Shown here in pieces: positions 1 to 61,402 of a stretch of 64,000 bases of DNA. The DNA comes from Ruminococcus sp. (GTDB taxonomy: Bacteria; Bacillota; Clostridia; Oscillospirales; Acutalibacteraceae): NCBI GenBank assembly GCA_017473555.1, contig JAFUKO010000117.1, forward strand, positions 5,197 to 69,196. Reading direction: 5' to 3'. The notes beneath the pieces are model-generated. The model searched no databases, was not told the origin of the DNA, and saw nothing but the letters and a program-made list of their open reading frames with translations. Each line of letters opens with the position of its first letter. Position 1 is the first letter of the stretch. Both the position numbers and the translations under genes were made by a program.

Positions 1-1
1 T

Positions 2-649: not shown

Positions 650-652
650 TAT

Positions 653-1738: not shown

Positions 1739-1752
1739 TTTGGGAGATAGAA

Positions 1753-3021: not shown

Positions 3022-3031
3022 AAAAATATCA

Positions 3032-6137: not shown

Positions 6138-6202
6138 GATGCTAAAACAATCGCACACAATGTGCGTCGATATAAAAATATATTTATAAGGAGGAAGAAA
6201 CA

Positions 6203-11089: not shown

Positions 11090-11098
11090 AATAAAAAG

Positions 11099-11114
11099 CC
11101 CCGCTATAGCGGGG
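11099..11114. terminator. GC hairpin after the large gene; weak or partial terminator
   Basis: CCCCGC-TATA-GCGGGG stem-loop. It is preceded by an A-run and followed by only TT on the + strand, so termination is probably partial. Confidence 0.35.
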
Positions 11115-11210
11115 TTGCGGCACAGGTTTAGAGCCTCCTCGTGGCGTGCCGTGGTAACATGTGATAGCATGGCAAAGACTAAACGAAAACTTACTTCCTG
11201 CGGAGGTACT

Positions 11211-42695: not shown

Positions 42696-42865
42696 GATAA
42701 TGTTCCTCTCGAATTTGTTTTATGTAAAAAACCTTAATGGTCGGTTTTAGCTTACAAATGAGATTATATCGTATAAATTCCCGAAAAATTAAAAATCGAC
42801 ATAAACAAGGAACAAATGTACATAAAACGGAAAAGGTATTTTAGTAATAAATAAAGGCGAAATCG

Positions 42866-42899
42866 CCAAAAAAAGTGCTGTTGCAGTTGCAACAGCACT
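42866..42899 (-). terminator. Intrinsic terminator
   Basis: AGTGCTGTTGC-AGTT-GCAACAGCACT stem. On the minus strand it is followed by TTTTTTT. Confidence 0.7.
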
Positions 42900-42913
42900 T
42901 TGGTTTAAAGTTA

Positions 42914-44112: not shown

Positions 44113-45387
44113 TCAGAATACAAATAAAACATCAAAGGTATTATCTGTATGTACTATTTTCATTAAGATATCATTTCGCTCACAAATTTCCTGCATTGAG
44201 CTGATGCCGATGCCGTGGTCACCCTTGCTCTTGCGTGTGAGGAATTTATTTTTGTCTTTTTTCAAAACTCCATCAAATGAGTTGCGTATGAGAAGTTGCA
44301 TGCCTGCACCTTCGCCGTTTGCGATAACCTGTATAAAAGGATTGTCCGTAACATTCTTGCAGGCGGTAACGGCGTTGTCCAGAGCATTACCCAGAAGTGT
44401 GCACAAATCAACGTCAGAAATATCAGGTGGGTTGATTTTTTTGTATTCAAAGCTGATACCGTTTTGTTTTGCGATAGAAGCGTAGTGATACATAATACCG
44501 TCCACCGCAGGGTTTCCGGTATACGGAATACTTACGTCAGCGTTGTTGTGCGATTGAAGTTCGTTACAGTACGCTTTGAGCCCGTCGTAATCTTCGTTAT
44601 CAAGGTACTGGTGTATTGCTGTTATACGGTGCTTGAAATCGTGACGGATTCTGCGTGCGTCCTCAATACGGTTTGCAAGCTCCATATAGTGGTTTTGTTG
44701 CAGGCTGAGTCCTTTTTCAAGCTCCATCCTTTCTTTTATAGCAAGGCTGTCCCTGCCCATTGTGCGACAAAGGGCTACAATTACTATGTACTGGAAAAGT
44801 CTGGTGATCAGTGTGTATTGGCTGTTTATTAAATCTCCCAGAGGCAAAGCGAAAAAGCACGATAAGAACATAAATACAGATACAAACCATATACCGTTCC
44901 AGTAGTTTTTTGCTTGCAACGACAGGAATGGTTTTACTGTACTGACAATCAGCTTGCGGAAAAACCAGAAAAGAAGTATCTGAGCAGCAAGACAATATGT
45001 ACTCACGATTATCACCAGATTCGAAACATCAACAAAAGTGATGAGTTTTCTTGCGATATATGTAACCGCAGAGATAATCATGAAATCCTGGAGCATGATA
45101 AGGCCGCATGTGAAGAGCTGCTCTTTTGTGTGTTTTCTGAGAACCAGAAGATTGATAACAGAGGCTAAGATGCCGAAAGCGAAAATATCTACCTTCATAA
45201 CATCGGAACCGACGCCGATTGCTCCTGTTATAAAATACATAGAGAGCCAGTTGATTACAAGAACCGCAGAGTGTATAGAGATAAGCACAATGCGTTGTTT
45301 TTTACTGATCGACTCTTTGAACGGAGCTAATCGCAAAATAATTCCCGGTACAAAGCAAAGTGTGAAAATCAATAAGTTAATTAGCAT
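44113..45387 (-). CDS. AgrC/HPK10-like sensor histidine kinase (GHKL ATPase, polytopic N-terminus)
   Basis: 6-7 TM segments, H-box RHDFKHRITAI, N-box LLGNALDNAV, G-box HGIGISSM. Confidence 0.85.
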   Translation of the reverse strand: MLINLLIFTLCFVPGIILRLAPFKESISKKQRIVLISIHSAVLVINWLSMYFITGAIGVGSDVMKVDIFAFGILASVINLLVLRKHTKEQLFTCGLIMLQDFMIISAVTYIARKLITFVDVSNLVIIVSTYCLAAQILLFWFFRKLIVSTVKPFLSLQAKNYWNGIWFVSVFMFLSCFFALPLGDLINSQYTLITRLFQYIVIVALCRTMGRDSLAIKERMELEKGLSLQQNHYMELANRIEDARRIRHDFKHRITAIHQYLDNEDYDGLKAYCNELQSHNNADVSIPYTGNPAVDGIMYHYASIAKQNGISFEYKKINPPDISDVDLCTLLGNALDNAVTACKNVTDNPFIQVIANGEGAGMQLLIRNSFDGVLKKDKNKFLTRKSKGDHGIGISSMQEICERNDILMKIVHTDNTFDVLFVF

Positions 45388-45388
45388 A

Positions 45389-46132
45389 TCAGTTATTTCC
45401 TATATTCTCAATCAGTCTTTTGTATTTTATGTCGGCGAATTCGTTTCTGACGGCAACTCTCTTGTCTTTTGGTATATCGAATTCCGTACCATCGGTCAGC
45501 ACAATAGTTTTGTTAGGAGTGCCGACAATCTGGTTAACAGAAACCAAAGCGTAACGCACAGGTTTCATAAAGCCGTGAGGCTCAAGCTCCTTGTGAAGTT
45601 CCGCAAGTGAGGTGCGTGTTGTGTAGCTTCTGTGTGAGGTGTGGATAATCGACTTGTGTCCCTGTGACTCTATCCATAAAATATCATCAAGGGCAATGGT
45701 TTCATCAATTCGGTCACAAGTTACGGTGATAGTCTTTTTGGCGGCAAAATTTTTGAAAAAGAAGTCGAGCACAGCAAAAAATCTGTCTTCTTCAATCGGC
45801 TTTAACAGATATCTTATTGCTTCAACATCGTAGGACTCAACACCGAAGTCGGAAGATGTTGTGCAGAAAACTATTTTAGTACGTTTGTTTTCGCTGTATA
45901 GCTGTTTTGCAGCTTCCATACCTGTGATACCCGACATATATATATCCATAAATACAAGGTCGTATTTGTCACGGTCAGCTGCAAGAAAAGCTTCGCCTGA
46001 TTCAAACCAGTCTATGTTTTCTACGTAATCTGTTTTTTCGAAGCCTTTTTTTATGAGGTTTATAATCGTGTCACGTTGACTTTCGTCATCGTCACAAATC
46101 GCAATTTTTACGGTAAAGTTTTTATCCAGCAT
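45389..46132 (-). CDS. LytTR-family response regulator
   Basis: REC domain (ICDDDE ... LVFMDIYM ... LLKP) plus a LytTR domain (ILWIESQGHKSIIHT). The ATG at 46132 lies 8 nt after GGGAGTGG. Confidence 0.9.
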   Translation of the reverse strand: MLDKNFTVKIAICDDDESQRDTIINLIKKGFEKTDYVENIDWFESGEAFLAADRDKYDLVFMDIYMSGITGMEAAKQLYSENKRTKIVFCTTSSDFGVESYDVEAIRYLLKPIEEDRFFAVLDFFFKNFAAKKTITVTCDRIDETIALDDILWIESQGHKSIIHTSHRSYTTRTSLAELHKELEPHGFMKPVRYALVSVNQIVGTPNKTIVLTDGTEFDIPKDKRVAVRNEFADIKYKRLIENIGNN

Positions 46133-46300
46133 TATTAACACCACTCCCTTACTGTATACATAGTAATTGTAACATCAGAATACTTTCTTCGCAATATAAT
46201 TTGTAAAATACTTTGTATATTGTTTTTGCTCAAACCACTATAATTGATATGATTGAATAATTCGCCCAAGATGTATCATTACAAAAAGTGTTGTACTTAG

Positions 46301-46348
46301 TTTGACAATCCATCTAATATATTGACTTATGTTTACACTGATATATAA
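46301..46348 (+). promoter_or_regulatory. Promoter of the LRR-dockerin gene with a TTGAC direct repeat 20 bp apart
   Basis: TTGACAATCC (46301-46310) and TTGACTTATG (46321-46330). The second doubles as the -35, 16 nt upstream of TATAAT (46343-46348). Confidence 0.4.
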
Positions 46349-46457
46349 TTATTATAAAGACGTAATTATTTAAGATTTTTTATTTTGAGTGCACCCTGAG
46401 TAGCACTCTCAAGCGTATTATATATGTAATGACTTTTTATATGAAAGGATTGATATT

Positions 46458-48638
46458 ATGAAGAAGATAATATCGTTATTGCTATCTTTTATTATGGTGA
46501 TAAGTATATTTTACGCTATGCCGTTTTCAGCATTTGCAGTTGAACTCGGCGCGTCACAGTCGTCCTACCGAGTCGGAGATTATTTGCTGGTTAAAAATGA
46601 CGATGGGGTTGAAATTTTACAGTACCTTGGTGATGAAACAATAATTTCTATTCCATCTATGTTTGGTGCAAGAACAGCGACTCGCATAGGTGAGAAGGCG
46701 TTTTATCGCTGCGACAAGATTTCACAAATTACTGTTCCGTCATCAATCACAAGCATAGGAAAATGGGCGTTTTATGGTTGCTCAAGTCTTGAGTCGATCG
46801 CAATAGGTGATTCTGTGACCACTATTGATAGAGAAGCGTTTGCTCACTGTAAAATTACATCAGTTGTGATTCCGCAATCAGTGACAAGTATAGGGGATAG
46901 GGCGTTTTATTCATGTAACAGCCTTACATCAGTTACTATCCCTGCTTCTGTGACAGACTTGGGCTCTGCTGTTTTTTCATCATGTAAAAAGCTGACATCA
47001 ATAAATGTTGATGTAGAAAATGAAGTATATGACAGCAGAGATAACTGCAACGCTATTATTGAAACTGATACAAATACTCTTATATACGGATGCAGTGCTA
47101 CGGTTATTCCTGATTCCGTTACAAGCATAGGTGATGAAGCGTTCAGCGATTGTACTAGTCTTACTTCTGTCCAGTTTCCTGAATCTGTGACAAGCATTGG
47201 TTACAGAGCCTTTTCTCAATGCACAGGTCTGACATCTCTCACAATCCCATCATCAGTTAAAAGTACAGGTGAGTCTGCGTTTTCAGGATGCGGTGGTATT
47301 GAAAAAGTAACCATTGAAAATGGTGTGGAAACGATAGGAAGGGCTACTTTTGCGAATTGCTACAAGCTTACTGAAATTACAATTCCTGAATCTGTGACAG
47401 AAATAGGTGATTCAGCTTTTTATTCATCGGCACTAACAAAAGTCGTGATTGAAGATGCAGCTTTAAAAATCGGCGACAGAGCATTCTCTGAGAGTGATAG
47501 CCTTAAGAGTGTGGATTTGGGCGATAAAGTGAAATCTATCGGTCCGGGAGCGTTTTCCGGTTGTACAGCTCTTACAGCAATTACAATTCCTGATTCTGTT
47601 GAAACTATAGGTAACGGTGCGTTTCTTGAGTGTACAAATCTTACAGAGTTCGTAGTTCCTGATGGTGTTGCCTGTATTGAGGGCTATGTTTTCTGTGGTT
47701 GTACAAACCTTAAATCGGTTACAATCCCTGACTCGGTTGAGACTATAGGCGATTTAGCATTTTATGGATGCACAAGTCTTGATAGAGTCGTAATCCCTGA
47801 TTCGGTTTTGTTTATGGGAGATAAAGTGTTTGCTAACTGCTCAAGCCTTGAGTCTGTCACAATAGGCAGTGCGGTACAGACCATCGGTGATAATGCGTTT
47901 GCATCTTGTAAAAGTCTTAAATCAATTGTGATTCCTTCATCTGTAACAAATCTTGGTATGAGTGCGTTTGATGGTTGTGTTGGTCTTGAGTTTGCTGTGG
48001 TAGGTGACGGTGTGACCGATCTGGTTGACACTTTTAACGGGTGTTCAAACCTCTCTCAGGTAACACTGGGTAAATCAATTCAGAATATCGGCAACTACAC
48101 ATTTGAAGGATGTACAAGTCTTGCTAAAGTTGAAATCCCTGATTCGGTGCAGACTATCGGCGATCATGCGTTTTCATCTTGTGCCAGCCTTAGCAAAGTG
48201 ACAATTCCATCTTCTTTGAAGAGTGTGGGTATGTATGCATTTTACGGATGCGAAAATCTCACATCAGTCATAATCCCTGAGTCTGTGTCGAGTATCGGTA
48301 TGATGGCATTCGGTTTTTATTATGATTCCGATACCAATACATTATGCTCAGTTGATGATTTCACGATTTACGGCTATAACAACACTGAAGCCCAGAGCTA
48401 TGCAAATGACAGTGAACTAAGATTTGTGTCATTAGATAAGCCTGCTGATAGTGAAATAGGTGATGTTAATGGTGACGGAGAAATCAATATTATGGACGTA
48501 ACAGCTATTCAGCTACACATTGCACAGATAGAAACAATCGCTGATGAGAGATTTGTCTGTGCTGATACTGACAATAATTTTGAAATCACCATTATGGACG
48601 CAACAATGATTCAGTTGTTAATTGCAGAGATTGTATAA
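46458..48638 (+). CDS. BspA-type leucine-rich-repeat protein with a C-terminal dockerin
   Basis: It has a signal peptide and about 20 repeats of the IP.SVT.IG..AF..C..L..V type. The terminal dockerin is GDVNGDGEINIMDVTAIQLHIA ... DTDNNFEITIMDATMIQLLIA. Confidence 0.85.
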   Translation: MKKIISLLLSFIMVISIFYAMPFSAFAVELGASQSSYRVGDYLLVKNDDGVEILQYLGDETIISIPSMFGARTATRIGEKAFYRCDKISQITVPSSITSIGKWAFYGCSSLESIAIGDSVTTIDREAFAHCKITSVVIPQSVTSIGDRAFYSCNSLTSVTIPASVTDLGSAVFSSCKKLTSINVDVENEVYDSRDNCNAIIETDTNTLIYGCSATVIPDSVTSIGDEAFSDCTSLTSVQFPESVTSIGYRAFSQCTGLTSLTIPSSVKSTGESAFSGCGGIEKVTIENGVETIGRATFANCYKLTEITIPESVTEIGDSAFYSSALTKVVIEDAALKIGDRAFSESDSLKSVDLGDKVKSIGPGAFSGCTALTAITIPDSVETIGNGAFLECTNLTEFVVPDGVACIEGYVFCGCTNLKSVTIPDSVETIGDLAFYGCTSLDRVVIPDSVLFMGDKVFANCSSLESVTIGSAVQTIGDNAFASCKSLKSIVIPSSVTNLGMSAFDGCVGLEFAVVGDGVTDLVDTFNGCSNLSQVTLGKSIQNIGNYTFEGCTSLAKVEIPDSVQTIGDHAFSSCASLSKVTIPSSLKSVGMYAFYGCENLTSVIIPESVSSIGMMAFGFYYDSDTNTLCSVDDFTIYGYNNTEAQSYANDSELRFVSLDKPADSEIGDVNGDGEINIMDVTAIQLHIAQIETIADERFVCADTDNNFEITIMDATMIQLLIAEIV

Positions 48639-50592: not shown

Positions 50593-52185
50593 ATGCGACT
50601 TGTTAATGTAAGCAACACTGATTACGGCGCTACATCTGAAGTTAAAAACATAAAGGGTGTAGCTGTATGCAAATATAGGGGTCGTTTTATGAAACGTTTT
50701 TGCTCTCTTTTACTCGTAGTTGTGATACTTATGGGTATAAGCCTGTCAGGATTGTCGGTAAATGCCGCACAGCATGATAATACAGGTGTTGTTTCTGATG
50801 GAAACAATGACGCTGAGACTATGGTAGTGCCACAGATACGTGTTACAACCGTTGACGGTAATGGTGTTTCACTTCAGAAAGCTAACGGTTATGTTGAGGC
50901 AACTATCACTATTACCGATACAGACTCATCTGTGCTGACTGATAATATTCTGTTTAAGGTGCGTGGTAATAGCACAGCGAACCCTGCTATTGCGAAAAAA
51001 GCTTTTACTATTAAGTTCGACTCAAAGAAAGATGTTCTTAATATGGGCAAGGCTAAAAAGTGGTCATTGCTTGCAAATGTCTTTGATCCTACACTTATGC
51101 GTAACTACATTGCCTTTGATTTTGCTCAGAAGATGGAGCTTCCATTTACTTCACAGCAACGCTATGTCGAGCTGTGGGTGGATAATAGCTATAGAGGTTG
51201 TTATGTGCTTACAGAACCGGTTGAAGAAGGTTCTACCAGAGTGGATATTGATATTGACAGCAATGATGGTATGAAGGACTTTCTTATTGAATTAGAAATG
51301 GATCGTGTTGAAGAAGATGTTTCTTACTTTACTACAAATTATATGAGATTTGCAGTTAAAGAGCCTGAAGAGCCTAACGATGAACAGCTCGAATATATAT
51401 CTTCTACAGTGAACAACATTATGGATGTAATTAAAAGCGGTAATAGGGAAGAAATTTCCAAGGTAGTTGATATCCCGTCTTTCACACGATATTATTTGCT
51501 TAACGAGTTATTCAAAACTCTGGATTTTAATTACAGCTCAGTATTCTTCTATTACAAAGATGGTGTTCTCTACAGCGGTCCTGCTTGGGACTATGACCTC
51601 GCTGCTGGTAACACCAGTGCTTCATACTCCGCGGTCAGCAAAGCAGCTGCTGACCCAACCGGACTTTTTGCTTCGGTTCGAAATATCTACTGGTATCTTT
51701 GCTCTTGTGATTGGTTTAAGAGCGAAATCCGTGAAACATATTTGCAATACTATGATTATATGTACAACATCACCTCAACAGGCGGTTTGATAGATACCCT
51801 GAATGAGGATTACGGATATATTTATGACCGCAACTACAGCGATGCAGGTTGGAGTCCGTCGAGATGGTGGGGCAATTTGCAGATGGAGCCTCTTGACACA
51901 TTTTCGGGGAATGTTGAATATTTGCGTGACTGGCTGTACACCCGTAATGTATGGATGAGCAACTATTACGATTTGCACGCAATTGCAGGTTTACGTGGTG
52001 ATGTAAATGGTGACGGAGTAGTTTCGATAATGGATGCAACTCTGACTCAATATCAGATGGCAGAGCTTCAATCATTGGATGGAAATGGCCTGTTGTGTGG
52101 AGATATCGATAAAAATGGTACTATATCAATTATGGACACAACTGATATTCAAAGATTCCTTGCACAGATAATTACTGATTTATAA
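50593..52185 (+). CDS. CotH-family kinase-like protein with a C-terminal dockerin
   Basis: The CotH core is VRGNSTANPAIAKKAFTIKFDSKKDVLNMGKAKKWSLLAN. The dockerin is GDVNGDGVVSIMDATLTQ ... GDIDKNGTISIMDTTDIQRFLA. The ATG at 50593 follows GGAGGG by 7 nt. An alternative start at 50689 sits directly before the signal peptide. Confidence 0.85.
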   Translation: MRLVNVSNTDYGATSEVKNIKGVAVCKYRGRFMKRFCSLLLVVVILMGISLSGLSVNAAQHDNTGVVSDGNNDAETMVVPQIRVTTVDGNGVSLQKANGYVEATITITDTDSSVLTDNILFKVRGNSTANPAIAKKAFTIKFDSKKDVLNMGKAKKWSLLANVFDPTLMRNYIAFDFAQKMELPFTSQQRYVELWVDNSYRGCYVLTEPVEEGSTRVDIDIDSNDGMKDFLIELEMDRVEEDVSYFTTNYMRFAVKEPEEPNDEQLEYISSTVNNIMDVIKSGNREEISKVVDIPSFTRYYLLNELFKTLDFNYSSVFFYYKDGVLYSGPAWDYDLAAGNTSASYSAVSKAAADPTGLFASVRNIYWYLCSCDWFKSEIRETYLQYYDYMYNITSTGGLIDTLNEDYGYIYDRNYSDAGWSPSRWWGNLQMEPLDTFSGNVEYLRDWLYTRNVWMSNYYDLHAIAGLRGDVNGDGVVSIMDATLTQYQMAELQSLDGNGLLCGDIDKNGTISIMDTTDIQRFLAQIITDL

Positions 52186-54029: not shown

Positions 54030-55688
54030 TTGAAAAAAGTAATATCGTTGTTCTTCGCTATTATTATGGTATGTAGTGTGTTTTACGCTGTACCATTCAC
54101 AGCATTTGCAAAGGAAGTTGATATAGCACATTCAGCTTCTTCAAAACCTGTGATTTCGGTTGAGTACGTAAAGCTCAATCCGTATATGGGCAGTTACGGT
54201 GAGTTTGTACTTAAGGTTACAGGAGCTACCAATGTAACTTATCAATGGCAGGCAGGTTATTATGACAGTGCGCTTGCCCCTGTAGATCTTGATGATAACG
54301 AATATTATATCGGAACAAAAACAAACCATTTTAAGATTCTGGCATCAGGACAACTTGATACTCTTGAGTTTCGTTGCAAGATTACCTATGACGGCGGTTC
54401 TACTTATAGTCAGATTTTCCATTTTACATTCCTTGACCCTAAGGTGATCAGCAGAGCATACGTTGTAGGTGTGGATGCTCCTGTTTTCGGATGCGTCCCA
54501 AAATACAGTACTGATGATATTCAGAGTAAACAATACGAATTGGAATCAATGGTGTGGTATGGACCAATAAATGGCTCATCTGCTCCTGAGATGAAGAGTA
54601 CTGATGTTTACGTTGAAGGTAAGTACAAATGCAGATTCTATCTTGATCCTGCAGAGGGATATACTTTCAATGAAAATTCTGATTGTAGTGTGGATGGCAT
54701 TATTTGCGATGTGTATTCTGAAAAGAGAGATGACGGAACAACCGCTTATTATGCAGACCGTGTTTACACAGTAGCTTATAAGGGAAACGTGCCTGAGGGA
54801 ATTCTGGACTTTGAGTGGAAAAATCCGTCTGATACAAGCTCTAATGTTAATTTAGGCAATGCGTACCTTGGCACAGATTCGATGGACATTCCGTTTGAGT
54901 TTAAAATAAAGGCTTTGCCTAAAAATATGGCGATAGCTGATTATACTGTTTATGGAAGCACGTATATTCAGGTCAATAGTAAAAGTGTTTATTATACACA
55001 TACAGGCGATAGAGTTAATCTTAAAGATGTGGCAACCGTTCCGGGAAGATATTATATCTACCATGAGCTTTTCCTTCTTGATCCCGAGGGAAATGAGATA
55101 GCAACAGAGTCTGTGTGCTATTTTGTAAATGTCTATACACCGACATTCATCACAGATTTGTCAGTGGAGGTTGATGAGCCTATAGCGGGCCTTGAAGCGG
55201 AAATAGCTTTTTTGAACAAGACAGAAGGCTGTGTTGTCGATAATATGTATTGGTATGATATAACCGATGGGGAGCGTGTTCTGCTCAAGCAAACAGACAC
55301 CTTTGAGGCGGGGCGCACATATCAGGTTGAGATGTGGCTTAAAGCGAATGACGGTTATTATCTGAGTACGGACAAGGAAGGCTATCTTAACGTAAATGCA
55401 AAAATAAACGGCAAGCCTGCAGAGGTTTTGCTTGATTCTTCTGACAAAGTGGCAGGATTCACACTTGATTTTACTATCCCAAAAGACGATTTTATGCTCG
55501 GCGATGTTAACGGCGATGGCCGCATCACTATTATGGATGCAACTGCTATCCAGCTCCATATTGCTCAGCTTGAGATGCTTCCTGAAGATAAACTGGCTTG
55601 TGCTGATACAGACGGTGACGGTAAAATTGCAATCATGGACGCTACACAGATTCAGCTGTTTATCGCACAGCTTATTCCTGAACTATAG
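54030..55688 (+). CDS. Secreted dockerin-containing protein of unknown function
   Basis: TTG start 8 nt after GGAGG. It has a signal peptide. The C-terminal dockerin is GDVNGDGRITIMDATAIQLHIA ... DTDGDGKIAIMDATQIQLFIA. Confidence 0.8.
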   Translation: MKKVISLFFAIIMVCSVFYAVPFTAFAKEVDIAHSASSKPVISVEYVKLNPYMGSYGEFVLKVTGATNVTYQWQAGYYDSALAPVDLDDNEYYIGTKTNHFKILASGQLDTLEFRCKITYDGGSTYSQIFHFTFLDPKVISRAYVVGVDAPVFGCVPKYSTDDIQSKQYELESMVWYGPINGSSAPEMKSTDVYVEGKYKCRFYLDPAEGYTFNENSDCSVDGIICDVYSEKRDDGTTAYYADRVYTVAYKGNVPEGILDFEWKNPSDTSSNVNLGNAYLGTDSMDIPFEFKIKALPKNMAIADYTVYGSTYIQVNSKSVYYTHTGDRVNLKDVATVPGRYYIYHELFLLDPEGNEIATESVCYFVNVYTPTFITDLSVEVDEPIAGLEAEIAFLNKTEGCVVDNMYWYDITDGERVLLKQTDTFEAGRTYQVEMWLKANDGYYLSTDKEGYLNVNAKINGKPAEVLLDSSDKVAGFTLDFTIPKDDFMLGDVNGDGRITIMDATAIQLHIAQLEMLPEDKLACADTDGDGKIAIMDATQIQLFIAQLIPEL

Positions 55689-55788
55689 TTTTATAGGACG
55701 AGAAGAGTTTTGATGCTATTTTGATACTTTTTCAAATTTTAGCGTTACTTATTGTATACACGCTGATATTTTGATGCTAAGAAAATCT

Positions 55789-55828
55789 AAGACTGATGTG
55801 AACGTTTGGTTCACACCAGTCTTTTTGT
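55789..55828 (+). terminator. Intrinsic terminator
   Basis: AGACTGATGTGAAC ... GTTCACACCAGTCT stem followed by TTTTT. Confidence 0.75.
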
Positions 55829-55883
55829 TTGTCGTATATTAACTTGTAATCATATCTTTGGCAACATAAATACAGCAATTTCA

Positions 55884-55918
55884 GATGCTCAAAATTTGAC
55901 CTGCTTAAACAAAGAATA
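55884..55918. repeat. Copy A of a dispersed about 36-bp repeat (copy B at 60150-60186)
   Basis: GATGCTCAAAATTTGACCTGCTTAAACAAAGAATA compared with GAGCATATCAAATTCTGACCCGCTTAAACAAAGAATA. The 16-nt core GCTTAAACAAAGAATA is identical in both. Confidence 0.7.
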
Positions 55919-55973
55919 TAGACAAAGTATTTTAACTGGATTTGCCTCATAACAAATATATGTTATGAAAACC

Positions 55974-56010
55974 TAAAAACAAAACCTCCGCTGATTTTTA
56001 GCGGAGGTTC
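55974..56010 (-). terminator. Intrinsic terminator of the second RR-HK operon
   Basis: AACCTCCGC-N9-GCGGAGGTT stem preceded on the plus strand by an A-rich run. Confidence 0.75.
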
Positions 56011-56023
56011 TAGGTTAGCTTGA

Positions 56024-57328
56024 TTATTTACTTCTGTTAAGCACAACAGTAAAGGTAAAAATCATCGAATTTTCATCAAATGAATACTCGATATAGCCGT
56101 CGTATTCTTTAGCAATACGTTTTATACTTCTGATGCCGAAGCCGTGGATGTCTTTGTTTGACTTGGTGGTTTTTAGCTCACCGCCGGATTTCTTTGGAGC
56201 AGTAGCGCAAGAGTTTTCGAGATGAATAACAACGAAGTTAGAATGGTTTTCTTTTATTGTCAGATCAATAGTTTTATCTTTTGAGTTTTTTGAAGCCTCT
56301 ACTGCATTTTCGAGCAGATTGTCAAGAATCGAAGTTAGATTAGCATCGTTAATAAACGAAAAATCAATATCTCTGACATCGCAGTATAAGTCTATACCAT
56401 AGTTTTTGCACACCGACACATAACGATTAATAATAGCGTTAACTAGCTTATGTGTGCTGTATTTGCGTAGGTGCTTTATTTGATATTCACCGTATAAGTC
56501 ATCAATATATTTATTGATGCTTGTACAGTCGTTATGATTTGCATACTCCTTTATAGACATCAAATGGCGTTTAATATCATGAATCAAAATATTTGAACTC
56601 TCGTAATGATTCTGTAATAGTGAATAATACTCAGTGTCGATTTCAGCTTTCTGTGTTTGAAGTCTGTATTCTGTGATTTCCTGCTGTGTCTTTAGCATTG
56701 ATTCGTGTATCCAGAATATAATGATGTTCGAGTAAATCAAAAGAATAGTTGAAACCATAAATATGAAGTAAACTGTTTTTGGAACATCAATAATAATTGT
56801 AATAGTAAGAATACCGTGCAACAAAACAATAGATGCTAGTGGCAAAATAAAGAGGAAGGCTTCCTTTGATGAGCGAAATGTTTTTCGTGATTCTTTTCTA
56901 GACAGTTTTGCGATGAGAAGTGCCACGAAGAAATAGAGTAACTTTGTACACGCAGTTTGTATCCATAGCACTGTGTCATTGACAGTAGCCTCTAATATTT
57001 CAGTACCGAAGAGTAATGTAGAACTGTAGTATATGCATAATTCTGTAATTACCATTGTTGCGGTCAATATAGCTGAATTAAAGATTGATTGAAAAATACT
57101 GGTATCGAATAACAAGAAACACAATAGTATATTAAACACCAAAAAAGCTCCAAGGTTTATAAATGGCATCTCCAAAAAGCTAAGAGCAAATTGAAGAAAA
57201 GCTGAGATTGTAAAACTCCAGAATACCATTTTTTTAGAAGCTTTTATATCGAATTTTTCAGAGAAGCACATCAGTGAGATGAGAGCCTCAAATATATATG
57301 TGAGCAAATAACATATTGCAGATATCAT
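56024..57328 (-). CDS. AgrC/HPK10-like sensor histidine kinase
   Basis: 6-7 TM segments, H-box IHDIKRHLMSI, N-box LDNLLENAVEAS, G-box HGFGIRSI. Confidence 0.85.
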   Translation of the reverse strand: MISAICYLLTYIFEALISLMCFSEKFDIKASKKMVFWSFTISAFLQFALSFLEMPFINLGAFLVFNILLCFLLFDTSIFQSIFNSAILTATMVITELCIYYSSTLLFGTEILEATVNDTVLWIQTACTKLLYFFVALLIAKLSRKESRKTFRSSKEAFLFILPLASIVLLHGILTITIIIDVPKTVYFIFMVSTILLIYSNIIIFWIHESMLKTQQEITEYRLQTQKAEIDTEYYSLLQNHYESSNILIHDIKRHLMSIKEYANHNDCTSINKYIDDLYGEYQIKHLRKYSTHKLVNAIINRYVSVCKNYGIDLYCDVRDIDFSFINDANLTSILDNLLENAVEASKNSKDKTIDLTIKENHSNFVVIHLENSCATAPKKSGGELKTTKSNKDIHGFGIRSIKRIAKEYDGYIEYSFDENSMIFTFTVVLNRSK

Positions 57329-58047
57329 CAGTTGTTACCCCCAACAAAAGCCATAAATTCATTCTTTAGTTGTGTATAATGTCGTCTGGATACACACGCG
57401 ACAGTCACAAGTTCGTTTTCTGCCTGAAATGTTATCACAGTTTTATCAACATTGATTACATTCTGCAAATTCACAAGAAAGCTCTTGTGAGAGAAAACAA
57501 AACAGGTTGGCTGATTTATAAGCTTTTCCCATTCGAATGGCTTTTTGTTTGTCTTGTAGGTAGCTGTTTTTGTTACAACTGTAGAACCATACTTAAGGTT
57601 TTCGATATACAATATGTCTTTTGTTTTCACTCTGCTGATACCATCATCGGTTTCGATAGCAATATTTTTGCTTATATTTTTGTAGTGTTCCACAGCTTCA
57701 GTAAAGTTTCTGCAAAATCGTTTCTCGTCAATTGGTTTTGATAGATACCTAAAGACTGAAATTTTCATCGCATTGTCAAGATAATCAAAGTAGGATGTAA
57801 GAATAATTACGATGGTTTCAGGGTTGTTTTTCTTCAAATTCTCTGCGACCTGAAGCCCGCTTATGTCGCCCATCTCAATATCAAGTATAGCTATATCATA
57901 CACAGCATTTATATCAAGTGAAAAATCGCCACTATTCTGGGTCTCAATATTGAATTCAAGATTTTCGTAAGATTTTATATTTTCGAGTAAGTTTGTGACT
58001 TGTTCTACGATGTTTTTATCATCGTCACAGATAAGAATACTAAGCAT
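57328..58047 (-). CDS. LytTR-family response regulator
   Basis: REC (ICDDDK ... IAILDIEM ... LSKP) plus LytTR (ILYIENLKYGSTVVT ... SHKSFLVNL). The ATG at 58047 lies 8 nt after GAGGTG. The stop overlaps the kinase start. Confidence 0.9.
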   Translation of the reverse strand: MLSILICDDDKNIVEQVTNLLENIKSYENLEFNIETQNSGDFSLDINAVYDIAILDIEMGDISGLQVAENLKKNNPETIVIILTSYFDYLDNAMKISVFRYLSKPIDEKRFCRNFTEAVEHYKNISKNIAIETDDGISRVKTKDILYIENLKYGSTVVTKTATYKTNKKPFEWEKLINQPTCFVFSHKSFLVNLQNVINVDKTVITFQAENELVTVACVSRRHYTQLKNEFMAFVGGNN

Positions 58048-58116
58048 AAACATTACACCTCATATTAATTATACAGAAGGAATACACTTTTGTCATCAGA
58101 TTTTAAAACTCAAAAA

Positions 58117-58186
58117 TGACCGATTTTGCTAAAAATGATACCGTTTTTTCTGTAAGTGAGATTTTTAGCTTAGCAAGTGTTATAAT
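58117..58186 (+). promoter_or_regulatory. Bipartite direct repeat plus extended -10 promoter (candidate LytTR operator), cassette 1
   Basis: TGACCGATTTTGC (58117-58129) and TGATACCGTTTTTTC (58136-58150), then TGtTATAAT (58178-58186). The whole block is conserved at 59267-59336. Confidence 0.5.
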
Positions 58187-58235
58187 CCAGTTGGGTATAG
58201 TATTGCTATATAAATGCTTTTTAGGAGATGATTTT

Positions 58236-59174
58236 ATGAAAAAACTAATGAGATTATTTACTTCAATTTTAGTGATTGCGATTCTTACTACGTGTTGTAT
58301 TATTTCTTCAAACGCCGCAATTCCACCCCAGAAGTACGGCGATCTCGATTACGATGATGTGGTTACAGTGATCGATGCTACAATTATTCAATGTCATCTT
58401 GCTCAGATTAAATTAATATTAGGTGATACGCAGGAAGCTGCGGACGTTGATAAGGACAACGAAGTAACTATTTTAGATGCAACTCTGATTCAGCAGTATG
58501 TCGCAAGATATGACGTTGAGTTTCCTGATGATGAGTATTTCTTAGTTGATGCGTATTTGTATGGAGTTATTCTTGATTATGATTCAGGAAAAGCTATGGC
58601 TTCAATACCTGTCAATTTCTATGTTGACGGATTTAATGAACCGGGTCCAAGTACAGTTAAGCTTTATGTAGATCATGAGTTAGTTGTTCAAACAAGTGAG
58701 CTCGGATTACCACCTCACGAAGATGAATATGTTCTTACTCACACATTTGAAAAAGCAGGTACATATGACCTTGTGATTTGTGTATGTGACAAATGGGGTG
58801 AGTCACTAGACTGGAGAATCGATGATTACGTAGTTGTTGACCCTGTTACAGATACATCCAAACCAATTATCACCTCCATAAGACGTGATTCTTTAATATC
58901 ATTAACTCCTGAATTTATAGCTCAAGCGCAGTACGGCACAGCACCATACGAGTATAAATTCGAACTATATTCAACATGGTACTTTGATGATGAAGGTATA
59001 GATGATTATTTAATAGCTTCTCAGGATTTCTCGGAAGATGATACTTTTGAAGTGGATCTTAGACACTACGGCACTGGTGGTTTATATAAAATTATAGTAA
59101 CAGTTAGAGATTCAAACGGGGCTAAAACAACAGAGTCTCAGATATTCGAAATACATACAGTTGATCCAGCGTAA
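58236..59174 (+). CDS. Secreted protein with an N-terminal dockerin directly after the signal peptide
   Basis: ATG 6 nt after AGGAG. Signal peptide MKKLMRLFTSILVIAILTTCCIISSNA. The dockerin is YGDLDYDDVVTVIDATIIQCHLA ... DVDKDNEVTILDATLIQQYVA. Confidence 0.8.
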   Translation: MKKLMRLFTSILVIAILTTCCIISSNAAIPPQKYGDLDYDDVVTVIDATIIQCHLAQIKLILGDTQEAADVDKDNEVTILDATLIQQYVARYDVEFPDDEYFLVDAYLYGVILDYDSGKAMASIPVNFYVDGFNEPGPSTVKLYVDHELVVQTSELGLPPHEDEYVLTHTFEKAGTYDLVICVCDKWGESLDWRIDDYVVVDPVTDTSKPIITSIRRDSLISLTPEFIAQAQYGTAPYEYKFELYSTWYFDDEGIDDYLIASQDFSEDDTFEVDLRHYGTGGLYKIIVTVRDSNGAKTTESQIFEIHTVDPA

Positions 59175-59215
59175 AGCTAAATATTAACCATTCTCATATA
59201 TAACCCTACACAAAG

Positions 59216-59250
59216 ATAGCACCGAGGTTTAAATTTCGGTGCCTTTCTAT
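59216..59250 (+). terminator. Terminator module, cassette 1
   Basis: GCACCGA-N10-TCGGTGC stem followed by CTTTC. It is homologous to the module at 60031-60060. Confidence 0.5.
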
Positions 59251-59266
59251 ATACAACATATAAAAT

Positions 59267-59336
59267 TGACCGATTTTGCCTAAATTGATACCATTTTTGC
59301 CAAATGCGAGATTTTTTTCTTGTTAAATGCTATACT
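59267..59336 (+). promoter_or_regulatory. Bipartite direct repeat plus extended -10 promoter, cassette 2
   Basis: TGACCGATTTTGC (59267-59279) and TGATACCATTTTTGC (59286-59300), then TGcTATACT (59328-59336). Confidence 0.5.
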
Positions 59337-59385
59337 TAAATCGGAGGTAGTGTGGCTACTCAAATATATTTCGGGAGTTGATTTT

Positions 59386-60000
59386 ATGAAAAAATTAGCA
59401 ACTTTTGTTTTAGTATTGGCGATGATTCTTTCTACAGTGGCTGTTGGAGTTAATGCTACAACTTTAGAAGAAGAGTTGTCCACTCAGATGTTCGATTACT
59501 TTGGAGGTAATGAGGCGGATTTATCTTATCTCCCATCTGATGCACCTCTGGTAGTCTTGGGCGATTGTGTAGAAGTTGATGATATGGTTATCTTCAGTGC
59601 TTATGCAGTTTGGATGGGTGCTGATTGTGCAGAAGTAGCAGAAAGATACGGAGATTGTTGTGTTTGGGCTGGTGGGATTACCTATCCATCTCACACAGGT
59701 ATGTTCGTCAGAAAAGATGGCGAAATCTACACTTTAAAAGAGGCTTGGGAAAACGGAATAATTATTGATTTATCACCTGCTGTCGGTTTTTCGGAATACG
59801 CACAAGTGTATCCTATCGGAGATGCAGATTTAGATTACGAGGTATCTGTTTTAGATGCAACTCTTATTCAAATGGAAGTCGCAAAAATGAGACCGTTGGG
59901 TCAACATTGGATCTTTGAAGTGAGTGATGTTGATGATGATGGCGATGTTTCTGTATTAGATGCCACAGCCATCCAGCTGAAAATAGCAAGAATAGAGTAA
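59386..60000 (+). CDS. Secreted protein with a C-terminal dockerin
   Basis: Signal peptide MKKLATFVLVLAMILSTVAVGVNA. The dockerin is GDADLDYEVSVLDATLIQMEVA ... DVDDDGDVSVLDATAIQLKIA. Confidence 0.8.
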   Translation: MKKLATFVLVLAMILSTVAVGVNATTLEEELSTQMFDYFGGNEADLSYLPSDAPLVVLGDCVEVDDMVIFSAYAVWMGADCAEVAERYGDCCVWAGGITYPSHTGMFVRKDGEIYTLKEAWENGIIIDLSPAVGFSEYAQVYPIGDADLDYEVSVLDATLIQMEVAKMRPLGQHWIFEVSDVDDDGDVSVLDATAIQLKIARIE

Positions 60001-60030
60001 TACCTAAAAATATAATCCCCTGAACAAAGA

Positions 60031-60060
60031 AAGCACCGAGGTTTAACCTCGGTGTTTTTC
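60031..60060 (+). terminator. Terminator module, cassette 2
   Basis: CACCGAGG-N5-CCTCGGTG stem followed by TTTTT. Confidence 0.7.
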
Positions 60061-60149
60061 TGTTCTCGATGAATTACAGTTGATATTCCTCAACAGTTAT
60101 GCCGAAAAGCGAGCAGATGGCGAGTGTAACATCTACTTCTGCTACGGAT

Positions 60150-60186
60150 GAGCATATCAAATTCTGACCCGCTTAAACAAAGAATA
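60150..60186. repeat. Copy B of the dispersed about 36-bp repeat
   Basis: See copy A at 55884-55918. Confidence 0.7.
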
Positions 60187-60366
60187 ATGAAATTAACCAA
60201 ATCAAATGTTCTAGCGAATTTGAACACTATTTAACAACACATAAAGAATAGCGTAACCCAATCTGCTGAATTCTGGTAGATAAAATATGATAATTCCCAA
60301 TATTTTATAAAAATTCTATTTGGTGTATATTTTGCCTACTGCTATGGTCAATTTTCACATATTATA

Positions 60367-60395
60367 TTGACAAAAAAGCTTGTCGTTGGTAGAAT
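60367..60395 (+). promoter_or_regulatory. Sigma-A promoter of the adhesin/pilus-type operon
   Basis: TTGACA (60367-60372), a 17-nt spacer, TAGAAT (60390-60395). Confidence 0.6.
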
Positions 60396-60458
60396 TTAAT
60401 ATATATATCTTACAGAAAGTGAAATATATTGTCACTCTTTTACAAGGAGCACGAATAT

Positions 60459-60818
60459 ATGACTGAAAAAGAACTTAGGCGACTGCGACGCAGTGATTTG
60501 ATGGAAATATTGTTGGAACTTAGCAAAGAGAACGAACAACTGCGAGAACAACTTAAAGAAGCCGAAAAAAAGATACAGGACCGTCAGATACTAATTGAAG
60601 AGTCGGGCTCTTTGGCAGAGGCAGTTTTGAAACTTAATCGTATTTTCGAGGATGCTCAGGCGGCTTGTGAACAGTATGAACACAATGTTCGATTGCGCTG
60701 TGAGCAGCTTGAGAGCGAAACCGGACGCAAATGTGAAGAGATAATAAGTCAACTTGAGAAAAGTGCATTAACGAAGAAACACAAAAGAGCAAAAGCAAAC
60801 GGAAGGGATACACTTTGA
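60459..60818 (+). CDS. Small coiled-coil protein
   Basis: ATG 8 nt after AAGGAG. Heptad-rich sequence ELRRLRRSDLMEILLELSKENEQLREQLKEAEKKIQD. Confidence 0.6.
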   Translation: MTEKELRRLRRSDLMEILLELSKENEQLREQLKEAEKKIQDRQILIEESGSLAEAVLKLNRIFEDAQAACEQYEHNVRLRCEQLESETGRKCEEIISQLEKSALTKKHKRAKANGRDTL

Positions 60819-61402
60819 TAAAACAAAAGAACATACTTGAACGTCCCTCTGTTGAACTGCTGGAAGCGGAAATCCGGAGAACAAATTATAAGCGGCGTTT
60901 CCATACAGTACTTAAAAGCACTATATATGCACTGATTACCGTTGCGGCGGTGGCTGTTTTGGTGGCAACCTTATGGTTGCCTGTTATGCAGACCTACGGA
61001 AATTCTATGACACCGACACTGAGCGATGGAGAGATTATTTTCTCTGTAAAGACAAAGAAATTAGAACAAGGCGACGTTATCGCTTTTTACTATAATAATA
61101 AGGTATTAGTCAAACGTGTGATTGCAGGTTCAGGGGATGTCGTGGATATTGACTCAGACGGAACGGTCTATATCAATGAGCAATTATTAAATGAGCCTTA
61201 TCTGTCAGAAAAATCTATGGGAGAGGTGGATATCGAACTACCATATCAAGTACCTGACGGCAGGTACTTCGTTATGGGCGACAACCGAGTCACTTCGGCT
61301 GACTCCAGACATACGTCGGTGGGATGTGTGTCTGATGAACAGGTAATCGGAAAGATTATTTTCCGAGTCTGGCCGTTAAAACAGATCGGACCTATCAACT
61401 AA
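60815..61402 (+). CDS. Signal peptidase I (S26)
   Basis: N-terminal TM segment, GNSMTPTL (catalytic Ser), VKRVIAGSGD (catalytic Lys), GDNRVTSADSR. ATGA-type overlap with the upstream gene. Confidence 0.85.
   Translation: MIKQKNILERPSVELLEAEIRRTNYKRRFHTVLKSTIYALITVAAVAVLVATLWLPVMQTYGNSMTPTLSDGEIIFSVKTKKLEQGDVIAFYYNNKVLVKRVIAGSGDVVDIDSDGTVYINEQLLNEPYLSEKSMGEVDIELPYQVPDGRYFVMGDNRVTSADSRHTSVGCVSDEQVIGKIIFRVWPLKQIGPIN

Follow-up and report, generated by a model that had tools for sequence, protein, structure and literature searches.

Within the window (i.e., the whole 64 kb stretch of DNA that was analyzed, from a gut Ruminococcus-like bacterium), the segment from 55980 to 60061 is likely a self-contained regulatory island that consists of a regulator-kinase operon and two dockerin cassettes (Table 1), and its sequence suggests that the sensor-regulator pair probably activates both cassettes via direct repeats. 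The two dockerin genes, dock1 and dock2, are unrelated and encode secreted proteins; they share an upstream module of ~135 nt and similar terminators, and both adjoin the divergently oriented genes of a LytTR-type response regulator and an AgrC-like histidine kinase.

Table 1. Features of the proposed regulatory island (positions in the window)
Feature	Position	Strand	Basis
Intrinsic terminator 3' of the kinase gene	55980–56012	-	13-pair stem (6 G-C), then T run
AgrC/VirS-like sensor histidine kinase, 434 aa	56024–57328	-	Pfam HATPase_c_5, hydropathy, H-box
Response regulator, receiver and LytTR domains, 239 aa	57328–58047	-	Pfam Response_reg, LytTR
Sigma-70 promoter of the regulator-kinase operon, ATGACA-17-TATAAT	58068–58096	-	11/12 matches
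Operator 1 (putative)	58119–58151	+	Paired matrix; gapless alignment to 12 other module copies
Cassette-1 promoter (predicted)	58158–58186	+	Direct sequence reading; position constant relative to repeats
dock1, 312 aa	58236–59174	+	Dockerin_1, 38.8 bits
Terminator, cassette 1	59219–59250	+	10-pair hairpin, T-rich tail
Operator 2 (putative)	59269–59301	+	Paired matrix, 41.3 bits
Cassette-2 promoter (predicted)	59308–59336	+	Weak -35 GAGATT, extended -10
dock2, 204 aa	59386–60000	+	Homologues with PF00404; calcium-loop columns
Terminator, cassette 2; right edge of the exchanged unit	60034–60061	+	9-pair hairpin
Cassette 2, horizontal exchange unit, operator through terminator	59262–60061	+	92.7% DNA identity to L048

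The kinase matched Pfam HATPase_c_5 with 76 bits. Hydropathy peaks indicate about seven membrane helices in residues 1–207, after which come an H-box (HDIKRH) and a GHKL ATPase domain; the sole matches of the kinase in the PDB were to the kinase module of Staphylococcus aureus AgrC (E = 0.004–0.009). Among the kinase orthologues, the sensor half is 60% identical and the kinase half 73–80%. The regulator matched Response_reg (61 bits) and LytTR (37.5 bits), and of its PDB matches only ComE (4cbv) is a LytTR regulator of full length. It scored 26 bits against the NCBIfam AgrA equivalog, whose cut-off is 400, and an identical 239-aa product is already on record. The stop codon of the regulator gene overlaps the start of the kinase gene. 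The promoter predicted for this operon is near consensus and tied for the best in the scanned region, and its ATGACA and TATAAT hexamers are also readable at the related loci L004 and L041.

The regions upstream of dock1 and dock2 had been described in the initial annotation as near-identical, which overstates the likeness of the whole block, given that 56 of 77 positions are identical (73%; 58110–58186 vs. 59260–59336), and 98 of 136 (72%) between 58112–58247 and 59262–59397. The description holds for the functional sub-blocks (i.e., TGACCGATTTTGC, TGATACC, TTTTT, GAGATTTTT and the TGnTATA(A/C)T element), which are identical or nearly so in both. The module contains two 12-nt direct repeats (ACCGWTTTTGCC; half-site consensus nCCGwTTTTGCC) with 21 bp spacing, which stop 5 nt upstream of a weak -35, and an extended -10 lies further downstream. 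The half-sites are ACCGATTTTGCT (58119–58130) and ACCGTTTTTTCT (58140–58151) in putative operator 1, again with a 21-bp period, and ACCGATTTTGCC (59269–59280) and ACCATTTTTGCC (59290–59301) in putative operator 2; the spacings reported initially, 19 bp between repeat starts and 21 bp between CCG/CCA cores, were reproduced. So were the extended -10 elements, which are TGTTATAAT (58178–58186) in cassette 1, where it follows the -35 GAGATT (58158–58163) after a 17-nt spacer, and TGCTATACT (59328–59336) in cassette 2. Both cassette promoters were missed by a promoter scan that requires a -35, and the same scan detected the regulator promoter at 11/12. The hairpins of the terminator modules, which had been called conserved, are real (59219–59242 and 60034–60054) and have surroundings that are 84% alike (59196–59232 vs. 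60010–60046). The RBS and first codons (ATGAAAAAA) are similar as claimed, but the similarity is partly generic to this organism's secreted-protein genes and is shared by the gene at 54030.

The paired repeats stand out from the remainder of the window. With up to three mismatches, TGACCGATTTTGC-N6-TGATACCNTTTT matched only at 58117 and 59267, with 0 matches expected from shuffles. In a scan of the 64 kb window with a paired half-site matrix, operator 2 was the best site and operator 1 scored 33.7 bits, compared to 11.2 bits for the next site and a shuffle maximum of 11.4. The first half-site overlaps TTGACC, which a simple scan may take for a -35, and this counts against the operator reading.

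As initially described, the coding bodies are unrelated, with the dockerin at the N-terminus in one and at the C-terminus in the other. The dock1 product consists of a signal peptide, the dockerin (Pfam cut-off 22.9 bits; E = 3e-6 to the dockerin of R. bromii Amy16) and a region with weak, sub-threshold Pfam matches to PKD (Ig-like) domains; its homologues carry PF00801/PF18911. The dock2 product consists of a signal peptide, a ~110-aa beta-rich domain and a C-terminal dockerin-like domain that falls below the Pfam Dockerin_1 cut-off (14 bits, E = 0.06). The dockerin status of the latter is supported by the PF00404 matches of its homologues, one of which is named a dockerin protein in one source, and by the invariant D/D/D..DAT..Q columns of its two calcium-binding loops. 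An AlphaFold2 model of dock2 (pLDDT 76) had no match in the PDB at E ≤ 0.001, and its beta-rich domain is without known fold. The cargo would dock onto cohesin scaffolds at the cell surface.

The evidence for a regulatory role of the repeats is comparative and comes from nine genomic contexts. The gapless repeat-to-(-10) geometry recurs beside orthologous regulators (57–98% identity) at at least seven other loci of other Ruminococcus/Clostridia assemblies, and 13 distinct module copies can be aligned from repeat 1 through the -10 with no gap, with near-invariant CG, T-run and GCC columns. Downstream of the repeats in these relatives are many different secreted cargoes, mostly dockerin proteins; apart from their signal peptides, their dockerins and a pre-dockerin domain that recurs among them, they are unrelated. 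In distant relatives (L006, L007 and L045; 54–57% identical regulators), the divergent slot is occupied by a 48–57-aa AgrD-like ORF and AgrB, which at L045 are preceded by ATCGTTTTTGCC-N9-GTCGTTTTTGCC. The agrD-agrB pair is what an AgrA-type regulator classically controls by autoinduction, and the regulators of the cargo-type loci group into a clade that is nested among those of the agrBD type. Given that the same geometry is found beside orthologous regulators, in front of both diverse cargoes and agrD-agrB, the repeats are supported as the operator of this regulator, and the earlier proposal that the divergent LytTR regulator has both cassettes as its regulon thereby gains, in the comparison suggested at the outset, support that is stronger than expected. 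The module copies are not fully independent, however, given that cassette 2 shares 93% identity with one of another genome, and recombination that spread the module, instead of purifying selection acting independently on each copy, could partly account for their conservation.

In the window and three species-representative genomes, every true repeat copy adjoins a regulator-kinase pair, and none dispersed from the regulator was found. The regulon thus looks local. Since the other dockerin genes in the window lack the motif, the system is not a general control of the cellulosome or amylosome. Some cargo homologues are found elsewhere under other promoters, which counts against the proposed regulation: those at L049 have no adjoining sensor-regulator pair, and a pair of dock1 homologues at L052 lies behind an ECF-type sigma factor gene.

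In the proposed mechanism, the regulator and then the kinase would be transcribed from their constitutive promoter. The seven-helix AgrC/VirS-type membrane kinase presumably senses an extracellular signal of the cyclic-peptide type and phosphorylates the regulator, a dimer of which would bind the two repeats, exactly two helical turns apart. If transcription starts ~7 nt past the -10 (i.e., at predicted positions ~58193 and ~59343), the repeats would lie at about -74 to -41, their conserved G residues would fall near -71 and -50, and the bound regulator, 5 nt upstream of the poor -35, would recruit RNA polymerase to the extended -10 promoter and switch the gene on, acting by activation and not repression. 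Each of the two operator-promoter-leader-RBS units would serve one secreted dockerin protein; given its own operator unit and its own terminator, each dockerin gene may be an independent signal-dependent cassette. The initial remark that no AgrB, AgrD or exporter gene is visible was confirmed: tblastn searches of the window with two AgrB and two AgrD from relatives gave nothing better than E 0.1, and Pfam scans of its 49 long ORFs detected neither AgrB nor a C39-peptidase exporter. Eight related loci likewise have no signal-peptide gene, AgrB or exporter within 6–8 kb, which counts against the proposed reading. The lack of agrB, agrD and an exporter nearby is shared with clostridial VirSR and RgaSR, and by analogy with VirSR of Clostridium perfringens, the signal is most likely an AIP-like peptide from elsewhere in the genome or from neighboring bacteria.

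A new point is that whole operator-to-terminator cassettes have been swapped between genomes or strains. The identity of cassette 2 to that of L048 extends over 803 nt, while the regulator and kinase genes of L048 that adjoin this 92.7%-identical cassette are 70.6% identical to those at 56024–58047. At L002, an unrelated FIVAR-dockerin gene fills the same slot between conserved ends. The breakpoints of homology between the window and L048 or L002 fall at the module and terminator ends. The conserved promoter and terminator modules also delimit the units in which cassettes are exchanged horizontally.

These breakpoints would also fit a module that serves mainly for the capture of dockerin genes by recombination or integration, much like attC of integrons, and whose promoter-like features are secondary, as would the tyrosine integrases or serine recombinase and relaxase found within a few kb at L002, L003/L004 and L042. 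We regard this explanation as very unlikely, given that Pfam scans revealed no integrase in the window, nor is there one at L041, L047 or L048, that the module has a complete operator/-10/RBS/start arrangement in constant register, that the agrBD-type relatives have the same repeats in the classical autoinduction position, and that ordinary homologous recombination between conserved ends would be sufficient for the swaps. Cassettes that move as units could also owe their sequence identity to descent, and an extended -10 can function without a -35; the upstream blocks could then be a trace of recent local duplication or cassette hitch-hiking, with constitutive expression and non-regulatory repeats. 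That is very unlikely, because the repeats are kept in agrBD-type loci whose promoters are otherwise unalignable, all true copies found adjoin an orthologous regulator-kinase pair, and the repeats have retained their sequence, their 21-bp period and their spacing from the -10 in lineages with ~70% DNA identity of the regulator and kinase genes, the last of which rules out local duplication alone, the alternative raised initially.

The repeats could instead be bound by another protein, with the adjacent regulator having other targets. The window does contain a second LytTR sensor-regulator pair (regulator at 45389–46144), and an HTH_3/HTH_31 gene, a candidate XRE-type repressor, is intergenic at L007 and L045. 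However, only the adjacent pair is found together with the repeats at every locus, none of the cargo-type loci has the HTH gene, and the second regulator is merely 29% identical to that at 57328–58047 and has no such repeats in its own divergent intergenic region, which makes this explanation very unlikely. Only 22 bp separate operator 1 from the -35 of the promoter that drives the regulator gene, and from this operator the regulator might mainly autoregulate that promoter, or it might bind the repeats as a repressor. Operator 2 has no divergent promoter alongside, the position of the sites and the poor -35 are of the activator-dependent LytTR promoter type, and the near-consensus promoter of the regulator would need no activator; repression or autoregulation is therefore most improbable, and activation of both cassettes by the adjacent pair remains the preferred reading.

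Among known systems, Sigma-I/RsgI of Clostridium thermocellum, in which an alternative sigma factor and a polysaccharide-sensing anti-sigma factor control cellulosomal genes, also ties dedicated extracellular sensing to transcription of dockerin-bearing components, in contrast to the two-component LytTR system with direct-repeat operators proposed here. In the pneumococcal blp and lactobacillal pln systems, a LytTR regulator and a peptide-sensing kinase lie beside several operons that all have one type of direct-repeat promoter, and conserved ends enclose a cargo region that varies between strains. The cargo there comprises small bacteriocins and immunity proteins, with a C39 ABC transporter for export, whereas here it is Sec-secreted dockerin proteins of 200–600 aa and no pheromone gene is present. 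In staphylococcal agr (AgrBDCA, P2/P3), the LytTR regulator AgrA binds paired direct repeats that lie between divergent promoters with suboptimal core elements, and the promoters downstream of these repeats are suboptimally spaced (PMC4227749). This system resembles L006, L007 and L045 in its divergent AgrD and AgrB genes, unlike the window locus, which lacks both and has the order regulator, then kinase.

By analogy, the closest paradigm would not be a complete agr locus but clostridial VirSR/RgaSR, where kinase and regulator are not linked to agrBD. In the virRS operon the regulator gene comes first, as at the window locus, and the VirR box is roughly CCAGTTnTnCAC, from which the half-site found here (nCCGwTTTTGCC) differs. 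VirS/VirR of C. perfringens likewise combines a polytopic AgrC-like kinase with a LytTR regulator, has unlinked agrBD with the AIP made elsewhere, and has few direct targets, each behind two imperfect direct repeats (PMC2838878; PMC4877802); these repeats are 7–8 nt apart and directly precede the -35, and neither is dispensable (PMC2838878). Its targets are toxins and small RNAs, whereas those proposed here are dockerin-bearing surface proteins that adjoin the regulator as exchangeable operator-to-terminator cassettes. RgaS/RgaR of Clostridioides difficile also pairs an AgrC-like kinase with a LytTR regulator that resembles VirR; agrB1D1 is one RgaR target, and the critical G residues of RgaR sites, at -51 and -72, are 21 bp apart (PMC10602386), as are those predicted here. 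The genes for RgaS and RgaR, however, adjoin neither one another nor their targets, and RgaS is unresponsive to AgrD1, whereas at the window locus kinase and regulator would be co-transcribed and the proposed targets are the adjacent dockerin genes.

The initial annotation described the blocks upstream of the two dockerin genes (i.e., dock1 and dock2) as near-identical, which holds for their discrete elements but not for the blocks as a whole. Gapless alignment of 58110-58186 with 59260-59336 gave 56 identical positions out of 77, and that of 58112-58247 with 59262-59397 gave 98 out of 136, with the identity concentrated in the half-sites, GAGATTTTT, TGnTATA(A/C)T, and the RBS with the ATGAAAAAA start. 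The bipartite pattern of the operators, with up to three mismatches allowed, was found at only two sites in the 64 kb, one before dock1 and one before dock2, while shuffled sequences gave an expectation of 0. A paired search at a 21-bp period, with a matrix derived from 20 half-sites, gave 41.3 and 33.7 bits at the two operators, compared to 11.2 at the next best site and 11.4 at the best site of 20 shuffles. Thirteen distinct copies of the module align without gaps, with the half-sites in columns 6-17 and 27-38 and the -10 in columns 67-72. Under a 17-nt spacer, the -35 position starts 5 nt past half-site 2 and reads GAGATT, which agrees with TTGACA at 2 of 6 positions. The 12-nt direct half-sites, their 21-bp period and their end 5 nt before this inferred weak -35, found in fixed register in all 13 copies, are the features of a LytTR target promoter. 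If transcription is assumed to start about 7 nt past the -10, near 58193 and 59343, the operators lie at about -74 to -41, with conserved G residues at about -71 and -50.

The cassette promoters were missed by the -35-dependent promoter scan that does report the promoter of the regulator-kinase operon. The latter is near-consensus, and the layout is thus that of a constitutive regulator-kinase operon beside two activator-type promoters. The terminator modules said to be shared by the two cassettes are true hairpins followed by T tails, with 84% similarity between the surrounding segments. Two other candidate elements were rejected. A leader hairpin (GTAG..CTAC) looked plausible by eye, but RNAalifold yielded no consensus pairs for ten leaders and Rfam had no match over 55000-61000. 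A TTGACA-like hexamer located 5 nt before the -10 was considered as the -35 of a second promoter, for which no usable -10 was present 16-18 nt downstream.

Features of the window and of loci from other genomes (L-handles), with the identity of the regulator where compared
Feature or locus	Position (strand)	Regulator identity	Content
Kinase	window 56024-57328 (-)		AgrC/VirS-like histidine kinase
Regulator	window 57328-58047 (-)		LytTR response regulator
Promoter of regulator-kinase operon	window 58096-58068 (-)		ATGACA-17-TATAAT, 11/12, near-consensus
Half-sites of operator 1	upstream of dock1		ACCGATTTTGCT and ACCGTTTTTTCT
dock1	window 58236-59174 (+)		secreted dockerin protein
Half-sites of operator 2	upstream of dock2		ACCGATTTTGCC and ACCATTTTTGCC
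dock2	window 59386-60000 (+)		secreted protein, putative C-terminal dockerin
Bracketing direct repeat	window 55889-55918 and 60157-60186		30 nt, 27/30 identical
Clustered copies	window 55707-55778 (+)		three copies of (A/G)TTTTGAT(G/A)CT
Second sensor-regulator pair	window 44113-46144 (-)		LytTR regulator and HATPase_c_5 kinase
Gene divergent from second pair	window 46458-48638 (+)		726-aa LRR_5 and dockerin protein
Paralogous ORFs	window 41718-43864 (-)		316 and 325 aa
CotH-dockerin fusion	window 50593-52185 (+)		CotH kinase domain (118 bits), C-terminal dockerin
Tandem repeats	window 10175-11158 (+)		four 228-nt copies, 62-88% identical
L002		98%	divergent: dock1, then a different second cassette (FIVAR and dockerin) behind the same module
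L003/L004/L009		67%	three modules, three different secreted proteins downstream
L047		68%	two modules
L048		68%	single module, directly divergent from regulator, drives dock2 homologue (89% identical)
L048, decayed operator	8680-8720		TTCACCGTTTTCACC-AAAATTA-ATACCATTTTGAT
L041		65%	single module with variant half-sites; two tandem kinases (7720-10364)
L042		61%	ATCGTTTTTGCC-N9-TGCGTTTCTGCC before non-dockerin secreted proteins; mobilisable element
L045		57%	57-aa AgrD-like ORF and AgrB behind ATCGTTTTTGCC-N9-GTCGTTTTTGCC, same register; gene set at 1-6376
L006/L007		54%	48-aa AgrD-like ORF and AgrB; repeat pair more degenerate; gene set of L006 at 1-5383
L013			one more module copy, at contig end
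L052	8532-11895		two tandem dock1-family paralogues

The regulator has the domains of a LytTR-family response regulator in Pfam, i.e., a receiver (PF00072, 61.2 bits; cut-off 30.2) and a LytTR domain (PF04397, 37.5 bits; cut-off 22.6), and scored 26.4 bits against the NCBIfam AgrA equivalog NF046049, whose cut-off of 400 was not reached. The kinase is of the AgrC/VirS type (HPK10), as it consists of a polytopic sensor with no large extracellular domain (about seven hydrophobic helices by hydropathy peaks, residues 4-207), followed by an H-box (HDIKRH) and a GHKL HATPase_c_5 domain (PF14501, 76 bits). Its only matches in the PDB were to the kinase module of S. aureus AgrC and were weak (E 0.004). 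The window is matched by a 76-kb ENA metagenome scaffold (ERZ28654267, scaffold_474). The closest named relatives of the window proteins belong to Ruminococcus sp. genomes assembled from metagenomes. Homologues of the regulator number roughly 390; a metagenome search with the regulator returned only relatives of at most 37% identity, which were of no use for footprinting.

We compared the genomic context of nine regulator homologues. The operator is kept before unrelated genes, always beside an orthologous regulator, and in an ancestral-looking form it precedes an autoinduction operon, which provides the strongest argument so far for the repeats as the binding site of the regulator. The proposal that the dockerin cassettes are the regulon of the divergent LytTR regulator is supported by this conservation. 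In a small neighbour-joining tree, the regulators of cargo-type loci (i.e., those with the module before genes for secreted proteins) form a clade nested among the regulators of agrBD-type loci, in which the module precedes agrD-agrB. Among the kinase orthologues, the sensor half is about 60% identical, compared to 73-80% for the kinase half; against an agrBD-linked kinase, the values are 52 and 62%, respectively. A sensor half that is kept yet more diverged than the kinase half fits a peptide receptor that is still functional and whose specificity is shifting. The two tandem AgrC-like kinases behind the regulator of L041, with sensor halves 56 and 60% identical to that of the window kinase, suggest two inputs. 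It was also observed that AgrD/AgrB are coupled to a radical SAM enzyme, a solute-binding protein and a C39 ABC exporter in L045, and to a U32 peptidase, an AMP-binding enzyme, a carrier protein and a reductase in L006, and that both gene sets are on apparently conjugative or mobilisable elements.

Nearly all cargo proteins combine a signal peptide with a dockerin, and several have a common domain of about 100 aa ahead of the dockerin. An N-terminal Dockerin_1 domain (PF00404, 38.8 bits; cut-off 22.9) is present in dock1, followed by PKD matches below the Pfam threshold, and the homologues of dock1 bear PKD domains; the Dockerin_1 domain and a match to the dockerin of R. bromii Amy16 (E 3e-6) identify dock1 as a type I dockerin protein. 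No Pfam match to dock2 was found at E 0.01; its C-terminus scored 14 bits on Dockerin_1 (PF00404; E 0.06), below the cut-off, and its matches to PDB dockerins were at E 0.015-0.038. Some dock2 homologues do match PF00404, one is named a dockerin protein by one source, and the two calcium-loop motifs of the family are invariant in an alignment of 18 sequences. The AlphaFold2 model of dock2 (pLDDT 76) contains a beta-rich domain, and a Foldseek search of the model against the PDB for the function of the N-terminal domain gave no match at E <= 0.001. Docking of the cargo onto cohesins is predicted from the dockerin domains only.

The regulon appears to be local. The remaining dockerin genes of the window (46458, 50593 and 54030) have no operator according to the paired matrix. 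The initial annotation raised the question of further motif copies upstream of dockerin or cohesin genes elsewhere in the genome; the scan found true copies only on cassette-array contigs and none dispersed. When the strict pattern was searched against 185,579 species-representative genomes, in which the assemblies concerned are incomplete metagenome-assembled genomes, eight stretches were returned. Three (L009, L011 and L013) were true, all from Ruminococcus/Clostridia and on cassette-array contigs, and the others were chance matches within coding sequence of unrelated phyla. The contig of L011 (GenBank JAZQHY010000056.1) belongs to the same species as the window. Nothing in these scans points to a dispersed regulon. 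Moreover, a cargo homologue in L049 lies beside a tRNA gene, with a different promoter and without this sensor-regulator pair, and the dock1-family paralogues of L052, which share about 40% identity with dock1, are preceded by a gene for an ECF-type sigma factor and by a 304-aa ORF. The latter arrangement appears to be a different way of regulating this protein family. As homologues of dock1 and dock2 occur without the sensor-regulator pair, these proteins are not intrinsically tied to this regulator.

The second sensor-regulator pair of the window shows 29% (regulator) and 27% (kinase) identity to its counterparts in the first pair and diverges from a dockerin gene. Its intergenic region contains a canonical promoter (TTGACT-16-TATAAT), and no direct repeats were found in it (46140-46460). 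The two paralogous ORFs downstream of the second kinase belong to no Pfam family, and one of the remaining dockerin genes encodes a CotH-dockerin fusion. Far from these genes, the four tandem repeats lie in a gene that encodes 1628 aa, including a NAGPA phosphodiester glycosidase domain, and that is part of a polysaccharide biosynthesis cluster. A scan of viral contigs with a degenerate operator pattern was set aside, as it returned unrelated 21-bp-period GTTTTTGCC repeats, mostly on high-GC phage contigs. These iteron-like (C/G)GTTTTTGCC repeats occur in L053, L058, L063 and L064 (viral contigs) and also in L061 and L070, the copies are perfect and in tandem on two contigs of low GC content, and no link between the phage-contig repeats and the window was found.

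The window and L002 come from the same species, and between 55937 and 59397 they are colinear with 96% identity, a stretch that takes in promoter module 2 and ends 12 nt into the ORF. Beyond this point, the ORFs of their second cassettes are wholly different, and homology is back at 59980-60186. From operator 2 to terminator 2 (59262-60061), the window is 92.7% identical to the cassette of L048, whereas identity is as low as 70.6% for the neighbouring genes of the regulator and kinase, which indicates that operator-to-terminator units move between diverged loci. Homologous recombination between the conserved ends would be the simplest explanation for such movement. Genes for integrases, relaxases or recombinases are nearby in some loci, and none were found in the window, L041, L047 or L048. 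Integron-type gene cassettes were rejected, because Pfam scans of the ORFs revealed no integrase in the window and every cassette has its own promoter and terminator. Exchange of units with different dockerin proteins between species would be a simple route to diversity of the surface repertoire under one signal.

The 30-nt direct repeat flanks the entire kinase-regulator-cassette block. Homology to L002 stops precisely at 60186, and the two strains have different flanks from there on; the bracketing repeats may represent the borders of an island or a site resembling att. The three clustered copies lie directly past the kinase terminator, in a segment with 72-75% conservation in two other loci, where it is located downstream of the kinase (L004) or beyond the cargo and relaxase genes (L042). 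The decayed operator of L048, which has no promoter or gene and is located past the terminator of the single cassette, may be the relic of a lost cassette. By eye, the stretch beyond it resembles a tRNA gene; no tRNA genes were found in the window.

To our knowledge, little has been established about how gut and rumen Ruminococcus species choose the dockerin proteins for their cellulosome- or amylosome-type scaffolds, and the well-studied model of dockerin-protein control is the sigma-I/anti-sigma system of Clostridium thermocellum. A full-text literature search found no title or abstract describing a link of LytTR or Agr to dockerin genes in Ruminococcus. The locus offers a concrete circuit with a defined operator, two promoters and a kinase-regulator pair, which would tie peptide-type cell-cell signalling to surface dockerin proteins, and the operator consensus can be used directly for annotating the regulon in Ruminococcus genomes.

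As noted initially, the window contains no AgrB, AgrD or C39 exporter (tblastn for AgrB and AgrD; Pfam, 49 ORFs). For two AgrB queries taken from relatives, tblastn found no match in the window better than E 0.1, and PF04647 was found in 0 of the 49 ORFs. Two AgrD-like peptides gave no match better than E 0.87, in a search that highly divergent small peptides could escape. Neither AgrB nor AgrD was found within 6-8 kb at eight cargo-type loci. Thiolactone peptides are predicted from the AgrD-like genes of relatives, for example with ..SCYYIH.. and ..SCFYVH.. as cores. A complete agrBDCA quorum-sensing locus was rejected, as neither an AgrB nor an AgrD-type gene was found and the NF046049 score was below its cut-off. 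It is conceivable, though we consider it rather unlikely, that the clade lost agrBD, senses peptides from elsewhere in the genome or from agrBD-carrying Ruminococcus neighbours, and deploys strain-variable, horizontally exchanged dockerin proteins onto cohesin scaffolds. If so, this would be a signal-gated accessory dockerin set, organised like a bacteriocin variable region, that remodels the surface or competes for cohesin sites and involves no killing.

The signal layout of the window, with a sensor pair and no linked agrBD, mirrors those of C. perfringens VirSR and C. difficile RgaSR. An Agr-like peptide is the presumed signal of VirSR (PMC4877802), and VirR boxes are paired imperfect repeats that are 7-8 nt apart and abut the -35 (PMC2838878). 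The genes of RgaSR, an AgrC/VirR-like pair, are separate from its targets, one of which is agrB1D1, and the RgaR repeats have critical G residues at -51 and -72 (PMC10602386). On its gene layout and boxes, the locus is tentatively assigned to the VirSR/RgaSR type, which it resembles in its AgrC-like kinase and LytTR regulator without linked agrBD, its few predicted direct targets and its paired boxes beside the -35. Within the Agr/VirSR kind, the comparison of loci supports setting it apart by its adjacent targets that encode dockerin proteins, its lack of linked agrBD and its exchangeable operator-to-terminator cassettes.
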